The position numbers and the translations under genes are program-made. Source: a virus (taxonomy: Duplodnaviria > Caudoviricetes). Taken from it: 64,000 nt of DNA. How positions within the stretch are numbered: position 1 is the stretch's first letter; each line of letters opens with the position of its first letter. Positions 26,784 through 55,596 of the stretch are shown here, one piece after another. The stretch lies in IMG/VR virus record IMGVR_UViG_3300011116_001229. One strand, written 5' to 3'. The notes below the pieces were generated by a model. It was not told where the DNA came from, did not search any database, and saw only the letters and a program-made list of their open reading frames with translations.

Positions 26784-27776
26784 ATGCGTTTTTACATCAC
26801 AGGTGGTGCAGGTTTTATTGCTAGACATTTGAAGAAGAATCTGATTGTTAGAGGGCATTCGATTCTCTCGGACGCCGATCTGATCGGTGATGGCATGCTT
26901 ACCTTGCCCAAGACGGGTGAAGTCTGTGTGCATCGCAATTCAGAAGACGCTTGGACAAGAGCTTTTGAAAAATACGGCGTTGATGTTGTTGTGCACAATG
27001 CAGCTGTGGTGGGAACAGACGTGGTTGCTCTCAATCCCGCAGAAGCGACTCTGAGCAACGTGCACGGTTCTTACAATATTGTTAGAGCAGCTAACGCAAC
27101 TGGTGCCGGCGTGTGCTACATGGGTACCACCGTGATTTATGACACGCCTTCCTACCAGAACCAGCAAATTTTTGAAGATTCTGTCAGAAAACCACTTACG
27201 TACTACGGCGTACAGAAGCTTGCAGGTGAACAGATCATCACCAGCATGGCAAAACGCTGGTCTGTGGTGCGTCCTCTCTTCGCTTTTGGTGACGAGGGTG
27301 ACATGAATTCACTCATCGCCAAGAGTATCTATGCATCCTTGCAGAACAAAGATTCTGTTGACATCTTCTTAGACCCCGCGAAGATCAAGGATTATCTCCA
27401 CGTGTCCGATTACTGTGAAGCCGTGTCGATGATCTGTGAGAGCAAGGATGGTTGGGGTACTGATTTTAACGTCGCAGCTGAGACACCTCACACCGCCGCA
27501 GAGATCATGAATCTTGTTTCTCGTGTTGTCGGGAAAAACGTAGAAAAAATCGTCCGCTGGTATCCAAAGACTGATTATCTCGGAAACCACAGACTGTCAT
27601 CTGCCAAGGTCAGAAAGCAAATTGGCTGGTCTCCGAAGCTTGACTTGGAGGGCGGCGTCAAGGCGACTTACGATTGGATTTCTTCAAATTCATCTAAGAA
27701 CTATAACCCTCTGAAGTATCTCGATGAAGCTAAGTCGAAAGGTACAGATCTACTGCAACATTTCCCTAAAGTTTGA
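26784..27776 (+). CDS. NAD-dependent NDP-sugar epimerase/dehydratase (extended SDR)
   Basis: ITGGAGFIA, HNAA, YGVQK (YxxxK), KDYLHVSD; GGAGG Shine-Dalgarno. Confidence 0.88.
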   Translation: MRFYITGGAGFIARHLKKNLIVRGHSILSDADLIGDGMLTLPKTGEVCVHRNSEDAWTRAFEKYGVDVVVHNAAVVGTDVVALNPAEATLSNVHGSYNIVRAANATGAGVCYMGTTVIYDTPSYQNQQIFEDSVRKPLTYYGVQKLAGEQIITSMAKRWSVVRPLFAFGDEGDMNSLIAKSIYASLQNKDSVDIFLDPAKIKDYLHVSDYCEAVSMICESKDGWGTDFNVAAETPHTAAEIMNLVSRVVGKNVEKIVRWYPKTDYLGNHRLSSAKVRKQIGWSPKLDLEGGVKATYDWISSNSSKNYNPLKYLDEAKSKGTDLLQHFPKV

Positions 27777-27878
27777 CGTGTAAATAACTAGTATGTGTGT
27801 GATGTTCTCCATATTTATAATGAGTCTCGAGAAAAGATACGGCCTTGTGCCGTAACTATTTGACCACCGGAGGAAACA

Positions 27879-28772
27879 ATGGAGAGTAAATGTGAAGTTT
27901 GCGGAATTAGCATAGAATCAAAACCAAGACTACGTACTTGTTCAAAAAAATGCGGTTACGTGTTGAGAAGTCGTACTAGAAATATAAAACATGAGCCTGT
28001 TGAAAAGATATGTCTCGACTGCGAGTGTAATTTTCAAGATACTTCAAAAAAGAAGTTAGTCGTTAGATGCAAACCATGCATAAACAATTCCATGGTTGCT
28101 ACACGTTACGCAAGAGGAAGCTATGAGCGCTCAGAAGAGCAGAACGAGAAATTGTCTATTACGCTTAAGACAAAGTACGAATCAGGATGGAACCCTAACA
28201 CTGAAGAGCATCGAGAAAAATTATCCGAGGGAATGAAGGCTCGCTGGCAAGATGGTTCAATGAGAAAGAAGTCGGTTGCAACAACGCTTGAAAAGTATGG
28301 AGTTGAGCACTGGGCGCAGTCTGAAGAAGGAAAGACAGTGCTATCACAGAGGTCAAGAGGCAGAAAATTTTCTGATGAAACTCGTAAAAATATGAGTCAA
28401 GGCGCTGCAAGGCGCATTAGAGAGAATAATAATCATTATGAACGAGGTAATGGAGGTTTTAGAGAAGACCTCGGACACTATGTACGGAGTAACTGGGAAG
28501 CTAATTTTGCTAGAATATTAAAAATTCAAGGAAAGTCTTACGAATACGAACCTAAGACATTTCAAATTGCTGAGGATAAAACGTATACACCCGATTTTCT
28601 TGTCGATGGTATTTTCTACGAAGTTAAAGGCTATTGGACCGAAAAATCGAAACTTAAATTAGAATCATTTGTAAAAATATATCCCGAAATAGAATTGCAA
28701 ATCATCGACGGCACAAAGTACAATGAGCTTAGAGAAGCTTACCAAGATCTAATTCACTGGGAAGGCAAATAA
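27879..28772 (+). mobile_element. Homing-endonuclease-like gene (Zn fingers, NUMOD3-like segment, T7 endonuclease I-like PD-(D/E)XK domain)
   Basis: CEVCG/CSKKC, CLDC/CKPC, KYGV, GRKFSDETR, RSNWE...YEYEP...YTPDF...EVKGYW. Confidence 0.75.
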
Positions 28773-28775
28773 TAA

Positions 28776-31700
28776 ATGAACAGCACAAAGGAGAAGAGCT
28801 ACTTGAAGCTTGAGTCCGTGCGACCTCCTACTCGGTTTGTGGGGTTTCACGCGCACTCAGGCTTCTCGTAAAGTTACGACATTTGACGGTTTGGGTTACC
28901 CTGCAGATCACATTGCCTTTGTCACCTCTGAGTCACAAGGCATGGATGCCTGGGCACTGACAGATCACGGCAATGGCAACGGACTTGCACACGCACATTC
29001 TGCTGCCAAGAAGATTCAGAAGAAAGGTGTGAAGTATCGACAGCTCTACGGCGTGGAGTTCTACTTCGTTCCTTCACTTTCGCAGTGGCGTATCGATTAC
29101 GAGGCCCACAAGCAATCAGTCAAGGACGCGAAGTCTGCAGCTGAGGCTGAGAAGAAAGCAAAGATTCGAACTGACATCGACGCTGACGAGGCAGCAGAGG
29201 AAGAGGAGGCCGGTGGCCACGTCGTGGAGGATGAGGCAGAGACGAAGGCCGACGACTACAAGGAGAAGCCTGACTGGCAGCGTCGTTACCACCTCGTGGC
29301 AGTGGCGCAGTCAGCTGAGGGGCTCGCGAACATCAACCGTCTCGTCAAGGCATCATTTAAAGACGGATTCTACCGTTATCCACGCATCGACTTCGACCTC
29401 CTCAGAAAGTGGGGCAAAGGGATCGTGTGGTCGAGCGCCTGCCTCGGCGGAACAATGGCGGGTACAATTCTACGAGGCGTAGCACATAATAGAACTTCTG
29501 AGCAAATTATTGCTGATCTTGAAGTTCTCACAGGTCAGTTCGTCGAAGCAGTCGGCCAAGAGAACTTCTTCCTCGAACTGCAATTCAATAAGCTCGAGAA
29601 ACAACACACCGTAAACAAGTACCTCATCGACCTGTCTCGAAAGACCGGTGTGAAGCTGCTGGCCACATGCGACTCTCACTATCCAGATCCCTCCAAGTGG
29701 CAGGCCCGTGAGCTCTACAAGAAGCTGGGCTGGATGGGCACGAAGCTAGACGAGCAAGCACTACCGAAGTTCGAGGACCTGAAGTGCGAGCTGTATCCCA
29801 AGAACGCTACCCAGATGTGGGACGAGTTCAAGAAGTCCTACGAACAGTACGACTTCTACAAGGGTTCCGAGGAGGAAGTTCGTGACGCGATCGAGCGGAC
29901 TCACGACGTCGCTTGGCAGCATTGCGAGGACACTTGGGTCGATGTGAAACCAAAGCTGCCCAAGGTCGACACACCAGAAAAAACAGCATTCCAGCAGCTC
30001 ACTGAGCTTGTTAAAGAAGGTCTTACCCGCGAAGGTCTTGCTGATAAGCCTGAGTATGTCGATCGAGCTAAATATGAGCTCGGAGACATCAAATATCTGA
30101 ATTGTGCTTCTTACTTCATTACGATGTATAAAGTGTTCAATCTTGCGAAGGAGAAGACGCTCTTTGGAAGCGGCCGCGGGAGTGGTGCGGGATCGCTCGT
30201 CAACTTCCTGTTAGGCATCACGCAGATCGATCCGATACCATACGGTTTGCTTTGGAGCAGATTTTTAGGACGACACCGAGTGAGCTTTCCGGATATCGAT
30301 ACAGACGCAGGTGACAGGGATGTCCTTATCGATGCGGCACGAACTCTGTTCGGCGATGACGCCGTGATCCCGGTGTCCAACTTCAACACCCTGAAGCTCA
30401 AGTCCCTCGTCAAGGACATCGCCAAGATCTACGGCGTGCCCTTCGAGGAGGTGAACGAGATGACCGGCCCTCTCCAGGACGAGGTGATGCCGCTGGCTCG
30501 AGACGAGGACCAGGAGAAGTCGGTCTTCGTGCTGAAGCATGAGGACTGCATGAAGTACTCGCCGAAGTACACGGCCTTCATGGAGAAGTATCCTGACGTT
30601 GCTGCACACGTCGAGACACTGTTCATGCAGAACAGGTCCATCGGAAGGCATGCAGGAGGCGTACTCTTAGCAGATCCTGAAGATCTTGCTGCAAACATGC
30701 CTATCATTGGCGTCAGAGGCGAGCTGCAGACACCGTGGACAGAGGGTATGAACTTCCGCAATCTGGAGGATAACGGCTTCTTGAAGTTTGACTTCCTAGG
30801 TCTCACGCTTCTCAAAGATGTCGAGAACTGCATTAGACGCATTCTCATCAAGAATGGCAATCTTGATCCTACCTTCCTGGACATTAGAGGCTTCTTCGAC
30901 AAGCATCTAAACTGTCGATACGTGAAGCAGGACGATCCTGCTGTGTGGAAGCATGTCTACCAGGACGGCTCGTTTGTGTCAGTCTTCCAGATGACTGCAG
31001 AGGGTGCTCGGAAGTTCTGCAAGGCAGTTAAACCGACGAAGATCGAAGACCTCACAGCTATTACAGCGATCTACCGCCCTGGGCCTCTCAAAGCAAACGT
31101 GCACAACCTCTTTGTCGAAGCTAGAAAGCTTGACAAGATCAATTACCCACACCCAATCATCGAGCAAGTCCTTGGACCTACGAAAAATTTCGTTGTGTAT
31201 CAGGAACAATTTATGTTGTTAGCAGAAAAACTAGGTGGCTTTACACCTGGTGAAGCTGATCAGCTGCGCAAGACGCTAGTTAAGAAGTCGCTTGACACGC
31301 TGGACAAAAAGTCATCAGAGAAGGAGCTTGCTAAGCAGAAGTTTATTGAGGGTGCTCAGCGACTTCACGGAGTTCCTCCAGAAGTGACCGAGCCTCTTTG
31401 GCAAACAATTGACAACATGAGCGTCTATTGTTTCAATAAATCCCACAGTTTAGCATATGCTATCGATTCCTACTATGCAGCATGGCTTCATACACACTAC
31501 GAGAAAGAGTGGCTGGCAACTGCACTTCAATCAGCTTCCAGCAACCCAAAAGAACTTGCGAAGACGATCTCCGAGATCAAGGCGTTAGGCTTCAAGTTCT
31601 CGAAGCACGACATCAACTACTCGGGCAAGGAGTGGCAGTTCTCTGAGGAGGCCGATGCTTTCGTGCCGCCTCTCGGTTCAGTGAAGGGAATTGGATCTGC

Positions 31701-32409
31701 AGCAGTTGAAGAGATCATGGCGAACAGGCCCTACAAGGATCTAGCTACTATGCTCTATGACGACGCAGGTGAGTGGCGACACAGCAAGGTGAACAAGACA
31801 GCTCTGTCAGCTCTTTGCAAGATTGATGCGCTTTCTTCTTTGGAAGATTTTAATCTAGGTAGAGTTAATAATCATAAGCAACTTCTAATGGCTTTGACAG
31901 ATGACAAGAATTACGAGATGCTTCGACGTGGTCTCTACGGCCTGACTGCATCGCAGCTGAAGAAGAAAGCTAAGGCCGGCGAAAAGATCGAAGCTTTCTT
32001 GGATCTAATGCTTACATCGCTAACAAATGTCGAAGATTGGTCTCGAGAAGAAAAGATTGAGATGTGTCAAGATTTAACACAATCTGTGGACACTGACCTG
32101 CTGTTTCCTCCCGCAGTCATGGAAAAGATTGCAGAAAAAAATGTTCCAAAACTTCATGATGTACCAGCAGGGGCTGAGGGAATAGGATGGTTCTGCGTTG
32201 CTGAAATTCAAATGAAGAAAACTAAGAATGGTAAAGTTTTCTATCGAATTAAAGCAACAGACGATGAACATCGAACAGCTTGGGTTAGAGCATGGGGAAC
32301 TCCAAAGGAAGAAATTCGTCCATACACACTTTGGGTTGCTCAAGTTCAAAATGATCCAAACTGGGGATTCTCAACGTCTGTGTATAAGATGCGTGAACTA
32401 GTTGGGTGA
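28776..32409 (+). CDS. dnaE: DNA polymerase III alpha (DnaE), interrupted: segment 28776-28868, 10-nt gap 28869-28878, segment 28879-32409
   Basis: First segment encodes FVGFHAHSGFS then TAA. The +1 frame resumes TFDG and continues TDHGN, GRGSGAGS, FPDIDTD, HAGG, KFDFLGL, YRPGP, YQEQ, FNKSH, KGIG and an OB domain. Confidence 0.93.
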
Positions 32410-54783: not shown

Positions 54784-55596
54784 TTATTTAGAAGAGTTTT
54801 CTTGAGGTTGTTGTTCTAACAACCTTCGTTTTTCTTCACGATTTTTAGCTTGAGTCTTGCGTCTTTTTTCAATCGTTTCTTGAGAAGGAGAAGGTCTGGG
54901 CTTTCCCTTTTGGGATTCTGACATTCTTTTTTTCGTTTCTTCTGAACGTTTTCTTCCTTTACTAACGGCAGATAACTTTTGCCTCGTTTCTTCTGAAACT
55001 GGCTTTTTATTCTCTGCTATCTTTTTCTTTTGTTCTTCCGTAAGCTTCCACTTTCTTCTGGCTTCAGAAAGCTTTCTTCGATGTTCTTCTGATTTAGGAC
55101 CGGTATTTTTCCCCTTCATAGACTCAGACATTTTGCGAAGTGTTTCTTCAGAATGAGGTGGAGGTTTTTTGCCTTTGTTGACTTCCCGAAGCTTTTGTTT
55201 ATGTTCTTCAGAAAGATGTTTGCCACGGAATGAAGAACCTCGTATATAACGTTGTTCATCTGAAAGATTTGAATTTGCTTCTTTTATCTTTTGTATTGTT
55301 TCAGTTGAAAACTCAAAATGATCGCCGCCAGACGTTAGGTTATAACCTCGTTTAAAAGAATCGAATCTTTCTATCCATACACGTTCTCGTTCATTTGTAA
55401 CTTCATCTTCACACTCTTCTATTATTTCGAATGTAAAGTTTTCTTTACCGTATTTTCTAATAGCAGCGTGAAATTTATATCCTGTTCCTTTTAACGCTTC
55501 ACAAAGATGACCCCTTACTCTTTTGTTAAAATCTTTTGTTTGTCCTACATAACATTTACCATCTAACAAATTTTTTGCCAAATAAATAAACCGCAT
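54784..55596 (-). mobile_element. GIY-YIG homing endonuclease with NUMOD3 repeats
   Basis: FIY...N...K.YVGQT, R...H, E; repeated (H/V)SEET/H..K.S units. Confidence 0.88.

Follow-up and report, generated by a model that had tools for sequence, protein, structure and literature searches.

A nuclease gene beside a coding gap in phage dnaE: a candidate homing cassette with a recoded immunity insert

How can a phage make its DNA polymerase when a stop codon and a frame change interrupt one of the conserved motifs of dnaE, and what does an endonuclease gene directly upstream have to do with it? These questions are raised by IMG/VR virus record IMGVR_UViG_3300011116_001229, a stretch of 64,000 nucleotides (nt) of DNA from a freshwater phage (Caudoviricetes) that we refer to, at its full length, as the window. 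Here, a free-standing nuclease gene adjoins a dnaE gene that is broken by a 10-nt insert. We think it probable that the two make up a cassette from a family not described before, aimed at the first part of dnaE in phages, in which a homing endonuclease is paired with an insert that protects the home allele and that ribosomes hop over. An earlier sequence-only reading of the window had proposed that the insert disrupts the recognition site of the nuclease, and a comparative co-occurrence test now supports that interpretation.

The interrupted dnaE and the nuclease gene upstream

The nuclease gene and dnaE both lie on the plus strand. The nuclease open reading frame (27879..28772) encodes 297 amino acids (aa); a reading-frame check places its stop codon, TAA, at 28770-28772 and a second TAA right behind it at 28773-28775. 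The nuclease gene ends 3 nt before the dnaE ATG at 28776 and 97 nt before the insert, which agrees with the spacings that had been read from the sequence. From ATG 28776, the frame reads MNSTKEKSYLKLESVRPPTRFVGFHAHSGFS and is halted by TAA 28869-28871. This 5' segment of dnaE (28776..28868, frame 0, encoding ...RFVGFHAHSGFS) could alternatively start at TTG 28803, 9 nt past an AAGGAG sequence (28788-28793). Because a AAAGGAGG-like Shine-Dalgarno (SD) sequence is kept at the nucleotide level inside the N-terminal extension of interrupted relatives, the shorter N-terminus may be the true one. Beyond the stop, the +1 frame encodes K V T T F D G L G Y P A D H; it is uninterrupted as far as 32409, for 1199 aa from the first possible start. 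The main segment of dnaE (TFDGLGYP..., 28879..32409) runs in this frame to its stop, and contains the DnaE domains PHP, DNA_pol3_alpha, finger and HHH_6 (Pfam, E-values from 5.5e-49 to 3.9e-10).

What lies between the two segments is the 10-nt insert TAAAGTTACG (28869..28878), which consists of the stop TAA, then AGTT, then ACG. With the insert removed, PHP motif I is restored as HAHSGFS-TFDG, a motif spacing that is shared by 51 of 52 distinct uninterrupted relatives. The insert is real: contigs from three different studies (lake, river and an unlabelled metagenome) cross it with 0 differences and 0 gaps, and the allele of the window is unchanged across lake and river samples from several studies, from 2018 to 2025.

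We next asked what kind of nuclease is encoded upstream. The sequence-only reading had described zinc fingers, a NUMOD3-like part and a T7 endonuclease I-like domain, and the first and last of these are upheld by homolog and profile comparison. Two CxxC...CxxxC pairs in the zinc finger region (27891-28079) are invariant across six homologs, which also have in common three helical repeats and a C-terminal block, RSxWEANFAR...YEYEP...YTPDF...YE.KG. The NUMOD3 part (about 28131-28400) stands as a likeness only. NUMOD3 (PF07460) scores 13.5 bits against a Pfam threshold of 20.4, and residues 85-174 of the nuclease resemble, by BLAST (E 5e-7), the five NUMOD3 repeats of a GIY-YIG protein. The latter is encoded by a second free-standing homing endonuclease gene in the window (54784-55596, minus strand), whose GIY-YIG domain and NUMOD3 repeats match Pfam at E 2.5e-11 and 2.5e-15.

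The C-terminal part of the nuclease (about 28476-28727) is a PD-(D/E)XK domain of the T7 endonuclease I type. A profile of the family matches T7 endonuclease I structures in the PDB (E 1.7e-7), and the four catalytic residues line up: E207, D239, E248 and K250, all invariant in homologs, align with E20, D55, E65 and K67 of the T7 enzyme. The Pfam model Phage_endo_I (PF05367) scores 29.0 bits, 0.1 bit short of its cut-off of 29.1, and PHROG 945 (labelled "endonuclease"; PHROGs gives endonuclease or resolvase) matches at E 2.4e-13. No HNH match was found for the nuclease domain. The likeness to T7 endonuclease I (gp3; PDB 1m0d, 1fzr, 2pfj) thus lies in the profile match and the four catalytic residues. 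T7 endonuclease I is a 149-aa structure-specific Holliday-junction resolvase that has no DNA-binding extension, whereas its counterpart in the window is the C-terminal third of a longer protein that also has two zinc fingers and NUMOD3-like repeats, and whose genomic behavior is that of a homing endonuclease.

Association and mobility of the nuclease and the insert

Do the nuclease and the insert travel together? The co-occurrence test, which the sequence-only reading itself had suggested, was run on a sample of 80 viral contigs that were fetched by similarity to the DnaE part alone, regardless of the nuclease, and whose DnaE is 51-78% identical to the main segment in the window. In most of this dnaE-first sample the HxHSxFSTFDG motif is unbroken, and it is interrupted in 11 loci representing 8 distinct sequences. 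We found that a nuclease or a nuclease remnant lies 5' of dnaE in 6 of the 8 distinct interrupted alleles, compared with 0 of the 52 distinct intact alleles (Fisher estimate on 6, 2; 0, 52 of about 6e-7). The nuclease is full-length in L012, L013/17, L032 and L072, persists only as a C-terminal remnant in L045 and L023/24, and is missing from L028 and L055. A second, nuclease-first sample consisted of 80 metagenome contigs fetched by similarity to the nuclease. Wherever the junction could be read, the downstream gene was dnaE, and about 80% of those dnaE genes were interrupted. Altogether, about fifty related phages have the pairing of nuclease and insert.

The distribution of the interrupted alleles is sporadic and polyphyletic. 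In a tree of 78 distinct DnaE sequences they are scattered, requiring at least 12 state changes, all of which are forced by well-supported branches, and near-identical DnaE pairs differ in the cassette (L012/L014, L072/L011 and L096/L030). The nuclease site is constant, directly 5' of dnaE, and is occupied or empty among nearly identical DnaE backgrounds. The nearest DnaE relative of the window, L055 (87% identical over 326 columns), has no nuclease and a 38-nt hairpin gap at the other serine; next come L089, with a nuclease and a 5-nt gap, and L039, which is intact and has no nuclease.

The cassettes come in two architectures. In type I (the window, L072, L081, L088 and L089), the nuclease gene is flanked by a promoter-like motif, ACGTGTAAA(T), on one side and by the dnaE start on the other, with the micro-insert about 95 nt further downstream; the nuclease gene of the window is of this type and is intergenic. 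The type II cassettes are composite (L012, L013/17, L032, L096, L099, L103, L106, L110, L111, L115-L120, L122 and L123). In these, the host promoter and the first ~20 codons of dnaE, ending in a stop, are followed by the nuclease gene, a second copy of the promoter (ACGTGTAAA(T)-N15-TATAAT), an SD sequence, a second dnaE 5' end and the gap. When L017, a type II locus, is compared with its uninterrupted sister L022, homology is lost at the Phe codon and is back 3 nt later, with the whole cassette in between, and the original 5' end (LSIELITPPNRFVGLHAHSTF, then a stop) remains upstream as a remnant. A search for such a remnant in the sequence 5' of the nuclease gene of the window gave nothing. 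Type II is a self-contained element inserted at the interrupted codon, and its insertion junctions give the strongest indication so far that the DNA break is made at that codon.

Run X4, from a sample that contains the window's phage, yielded a contig reading ...AGC ACC TTC GAC GGA CTC GGC TAT CCA GCC before position 28906, at a loose contig end. This contig comes from a co-occurring relative with an uninterrupted S-T-F-D-G junction, a potential recipient allele.

Relatives of the nuclease are also found outside dnaE. Shorter relatives with the same ...WEGK end lie directly 5' of a sigma-factor-like gene in L148-L167 (e.g. L149:3150-3290 and L148:3270-3400). In 12 distinct loci, a conserved junction of this sigma-factor-like gene is longer by exactly one base (NNN C GGN, where the zero-frame codon is CGG); the gene is uninterrupted in L085:3429-4409. 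The extra base looks like a conserved +1 recoding site that is paired with the same nuclease family at another target.

Reading across the gap

How, then, might a ribosome read across the insert? We found about 25 junction types, with inserts of 5, 8, 9, 10, 11, 12, 38 or 40 nt, and the decoding tallies given here rest on the 23 types that were tabulated. There are only two insert sites, after the Ser of xFS-T or after the Ser/Thr of HxHS-G, and in 23 of 23 types the insert opens with TAA, TAG or TGA directly after the last shared codon. That codon, the presumed take-off codon, is TCN (Ser) in the relatives, except for ACT (Thr) in L130; in the window it is TCG (28866..28868). In 17 of the 23 types, the junction closes with a codon compatible with the Ser or Thr tRNA of the take-off codon (e.g. 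TCC..TCC, TCG..TCG, TCC..TCT or ACT..ACT). Examples are TCC TAATGAAG TCC in L088, TCG TGACCTAAA TCG in L023, TCC TAGGTA TCT in L013, TCG TAATAATA TCA in L032, ACT TA ACT in L130 and TCG TAG-hairpin-TCG in L055. The six remaining types, including the window, have a landing triplet that matches at two of three positions (ACG, ACC or TTG). At this Ser, the codon in uninterrupted sister alleles is often AGT or AGC, and interrupted alleles always have TCN at take-off; because of this, the matched TCN pair looks like part of the design of the insert and not like a leftover. The 38- and 40-nt gaps contain 11-bp GC-rich hairpins (p of 0.003 and 0.02 against gap shuffles) that leave 8-10 nt unpaired, which is the size of the short class. 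Upstream of the gap, the HxH and the residues that follow it are kept in all types, with synonymous variation.

In L133:1559-1700, dnaE lies beside a partial nuclease gene and, just ahead of the Phe codon, is longer by a single T (ACC T TTC TCG), with no stop codon. This T may extend the insert series down to 1 nt, or it may be an error of sequencing, the contig being of low coverage. In L099:1058-1230, which has an 8-nt gap, the sequence past the gap reads V-C-G-G for V-Y-D-G, so that a conserved Asp is lost, and this allele may be a decaying copy.

These features are what would be expected if the cassette works as follows. The nuclease, with its zinc-finger and NUMOD3-like DNA-binding part and its T7-endonuclease-I-type domain, and encoded between the dnaE promoter region and the dnaE start, would most likely cleave insert-free dnaE at or near the HxHS-xFS-T codons of PHP motif I. 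The 10-nt insert at the same place in the home allele would break this target and thereby confer immunity, and would leave the protein unchanged. A ribosome with peptidyl-tRNA-Ser on UCG 28866-68 would meet UAA in its A site, slide about 10 nt, re-pair imperfectly on ACG 28876-78 (the last triplet of the insert and the presumed landing triplet), and resume at ACA 28879. The predicted junction is ...HSGFSTFDGLGYPADH... (GFSTFDG), with no extra residues. Two other ways of reading the gap were rejected. Take-off one codon earlier, at Phe, followed by landing on the TFDG Phe, would remove three conserved residues and could not work in alleles that have Ala or Met at these positions, and reassignment of a stop codon is ruled out by the use of all three stops among the relatives.

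Several observations weigh against the proposed cassette, or against hopping as its decoding route. The landing triplet of the window, ACG, matches the take-off codon UCG at only 2 of 3 positions, and the match is similarly weak in the 5-nt class (ACG), in L137 (ACC) and in the TTG class. The window gap is the sole type of the +1 class with an open downstream frame, and a +1 shift at UCG-UAA-A would also give a full-length protein, with K, V and T added. No stimulatory signal was identified at the short gaps, where structure is neither significant nor conserved: RNAalifold found zero consensus pairs among 21 short-gap alleles, and the hairpin of the window gap (UCGUA/UACGA, -3.4 kcal/mol) gives no signal against gap shuffles (p 0.13). 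The gap of L088 contains an in-frame ATG. No run on record as RNA contains this stretch; the sole run with an RNA-Seq label probably represents DNA, and its coverage is confined to 28403-28682. The nuclease also lies beside an uninterrupted dnaE in L104/L107, L114, L121, L128, L131, L135, L145 and L140, so the insert is not obligatory for the coexistence of nuclease and dnaE. These loci form a divergent DnaE clade with a nuclease clade of their own and have different nucleotides at the site; the case that the sequence-only reading had named as refuting it, a nuclease beside an uninterrupted dnaE of the same sequence, was not found. Finally, the nuclease clade of the window has four members with four different inserts (10, 11, 5 and 40 nt). 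Because of this, inserts seem to be replaced or re-invented quickly, and the nuclease and insert would be linked functionally and not as a fixed or frozen unit.

We next weighed other explanations. The cassette could be as proposed, but with the insert of the window decoded by a +1 frameshift at UCG-UAA-A (giving GFS-KVT-TFDG) and those of other relatives by -1 frameshifting or readthrough. In its favor, +1 frameshifting is classically stimulated by a stop codon in the A site, as in prfB, and the window has one there; in addition, the +1 frame across the gap is open, and 10 of the 23 junction types are open to a single shift. In the other 13, however, a single +1 or -1 shift is impossible, as 11 are in frame with the stop and 2 have a further stop in the target frame, and these closed types include the other 10-nt type, L072, which has a TAA in the +1 frame. 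Moreover, tRNA-Ser would be unable to re-pair on CGU, and the motif spacing is fixed in all but one of the 52 intact alleles. Frameshifting and readthrough together would need three different mechanisms in one family and would add 2-13 residues to an invariant motif, whereas a single mechanism, the stop-triggered hop of peptidyl-tRNA-Ser, would account for all frames and lengths. For these reasons we regard frameshifting as an unlikely solution.

Alternatively, dnaE could be truly split, with termination at TAA 28869 and production of the large part by re-initiation or from an internal start, and the short N-terminal peptide might or might not contribute in trans. Homing endonucleases are known to split genes whose parts reassemble, such as T4 gp39/gp60 and Aeh1 NrdA, and the in-frame ATG within the L088 gap would suit such a scheme. 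Neither the window nor most other types, however, have a start codon or an SD sequence near the gap, and there is no gain over intact alleles in this respect (1 of 36 interrupted compared with 2 of 59 intact). The downstream part would also be without the HxH metal ligands, which are conserved in every allele, and a free peptide of 22-31 aa would need to supply the first strand of the PHP barrel. A split gene therefore strikes us as quite improbable.

The chance that the nuclease and insert are neighbors by coincidence appears similarly small. Under this explanation, the insert would be a regulatory recoding site that sets the level of DnaE, and the nuclease a selfish gene with its target elsewhere; both the interrupted alleles without a nuclease (L028 and L055) and the several nuclease-bearing alleles without an insert could be read in this way. 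Against it stands the exclusive association in the dnaE-first sample, which is unbiased with respect to the nuclease, as well as the fact that type II cassettes terminate exactly at the gap. Loss of the nuclease with retention of the gap is, furthermore, the expected path of decay, which is known for MobA too, and decayed nuclease remnants are present in L045 and L023/24. Lastly, the idea that the interruption marks a pseudogene in decay or an artefact of assembly, as a stop and frame change 31 codons into the gene might suggest, is hardly credible, since it is already contradicted by the identical sequence in contigs of three independent studies and by the open and conserved state of the 1175 downstream codons, both in the window and in at least 12 independent interrupted lineages, and since inserts are confined to two codons with the stop always first.

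Known counterparts, upstream elements and implications

Is the dnaE cassette homologous or analogous to the mobA/gene 60 element of phage T4, which is reportedly the subject of a 2011 study by Bonocora? The two have much in common. In both, a selfish nuclease gene adjoins an essential replication gene; a conserved motif contains an insert, presumably untranslated in dnaE, whose first codon is a stop adjoining the take-off codon; the displaced coding segment is supplied again by the element itself, as the second dnaE 5' end in type II cassettes and as a homologous replacement segment (homR) in T4; and occurrence is sporadic among close relatives, with the nuclease decaying or being lost and the gap retained. 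In the MobA element, homR is followed by the bypass cassette, and the gap likewise outlasts a decaying nuclease (Manning and Atkins, bioRxiv 10.1101/2022.08.31.505936).

The differences are nonetheless substantial. The nuclease is an Endo-I-type PD-(D/E)XK enzyme, non-homologous to the HNH enzyme MobA, and the target is PHP motif I of dnaE, as opposed to the Toprim domain in the gene for the large subunit of topoisomerase II. The short gaps measure 5-12 nt (10 in the window, of unrelated sequence), compared with 50 nt in T4, and have no detected conserved stem-loops, internal SD sequence or long nascent-peptide signal. There are many unrelated insert sequences, where T4 and its relatives have one homologous cassette; the landing triplet in the window matches at two of three positions only; and the nuclease gene in the window is intergenic and does not split a gene in two. 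On every defining feature of the T4 mobA/gene 60 family that could be tested, namely nuclease fold, target, and cassette sequence and length, the dnaE cassette falls outside it. The cassette appears to be not a homolog but an independent counterpart with the same logic, which in T4 is that of a selfish nuclease whose home allele is made uncuttable by an insert that ribosomes skip.

A second parallel is found in the terminase gene of Streptomyces phage Hau3, where mass spectrometry showed that gaps of 7-10 nt are bypassed (PMC10732093). As in Hau3 and related prophages, very short non-coding blocks here sit in a conserved junction of an essential phage gene, the argument from an invariant junction is the same, and bypassing, not frameshifting, is the reading route that we propose. 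Hau3 bypassing differs in that it has a rare UUA codon as its trigger and no stop, is proposed to be regulatory and has no associated homing endonuclease. Bypassing of the Hau3 type is also known from only three genes, compared with dozens of variants in the dnaE family.

A third parallel is the fractured genes of aquatic phages, in which free-standing nucleases invade conserved replication genes, dnaE included, and bring control elements with them (Dassa 2009, PMC2677866). The T4 Seg and Mob genes belong with these free-standing nucleases, and the arrangement described by Dassa is seen inside dnaE in some of our loci. Further downstream, dnaE is fractured by split inteins with a free-standing nuclease between the halves in L045:4846-5860 and L086:2500-3430 (also L087); in L045 this nuclease is Vsr-like, and in L086/87 it is related to the Endo-I-type nuclease described here. 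At the loci described by Dassa, the protein is restored by split inteins or subunit assembly and the nucleases are mostly Vsr-like (EDxHD), HNH or GIY-YIG, whereas here a micro-insert is read by proposed recoding and the nuclease has a different fold. Our full-text literature searches returned no report of bypassing or of a coding gap in dnaE, and a collection of cultured phages held no close DNA relative of the window, with DnaE matches of at most 30% identity and nuclease-domain matches of at most 36%. Among cultured mycobacteriophages, which were sampled for such gaps, Konstantine has an intact dnaE, and a DNA search with the L130 junction gave no match.

Upstream of the cassette are elements that may control its expression. 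About 100 nt 5' of uninterrupted dnaE genes in the relatives, we found the sequence ACGTGTAAA(T)-N15-TATAAT (L014:1539, L038:3869, L050:3873, L054:3868 and others), which is a candidate for a conserved dnaE promoter of this phage group. The window has the promoter-like motif ACGTGTAAATAA once (27776..27787, plus strand), directly past the stop of an epimerase gene and 103 nt 5' of the nuclease ATG. Its distance to a TATAAT (27816-27821) is about 31 nt, making the spacer about 15 nt longer than in the relatives, and here it is a putative promoter only. Between this motif and the ribosome-binding site of the nuclease lies a 6-bp hairpin, TACGGCcttgtGCCGTA (27838..27854, plus strand), which scored as terminator-like on the minus strand; in L089, a longer palindrome takes its place. 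The hairpin could play a regulatory role.

What would such a cassette mean for this nuclease family and for phages more generally? We raise tentatively the possibility that the nuclease family routinely guards its home alleles through insertions of 1 to 40 nt in the most conserved codons of the adjoining essential gene, and that ordinary bacterial ribosomes cross these by a general hop over short distances, triggered by the stop and independent of any dedicated RNA structure, which also operates outside dnaE. So far, the only known pairing of a homing endonuclease with translational bypassing is that of T4 mobA/gene 60 and its topoisomerase-gene relatives, which make up one homologous element. 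If the proposed cassette is real, a second, unrelated family with dozens of variants would make the recoded immunity insert a repeatable evolutionary solution and not a one-off. Because its natural variants differ in length, frame and stop codon, and come with and without hairpins, the family would also provide a natural mutant series for defining the minimal signals behind a ribosome hop of 5-12 nt. For the annotation of phage genomes, it carries the warning that a dnaE called frameshifted or truncated may be intact.

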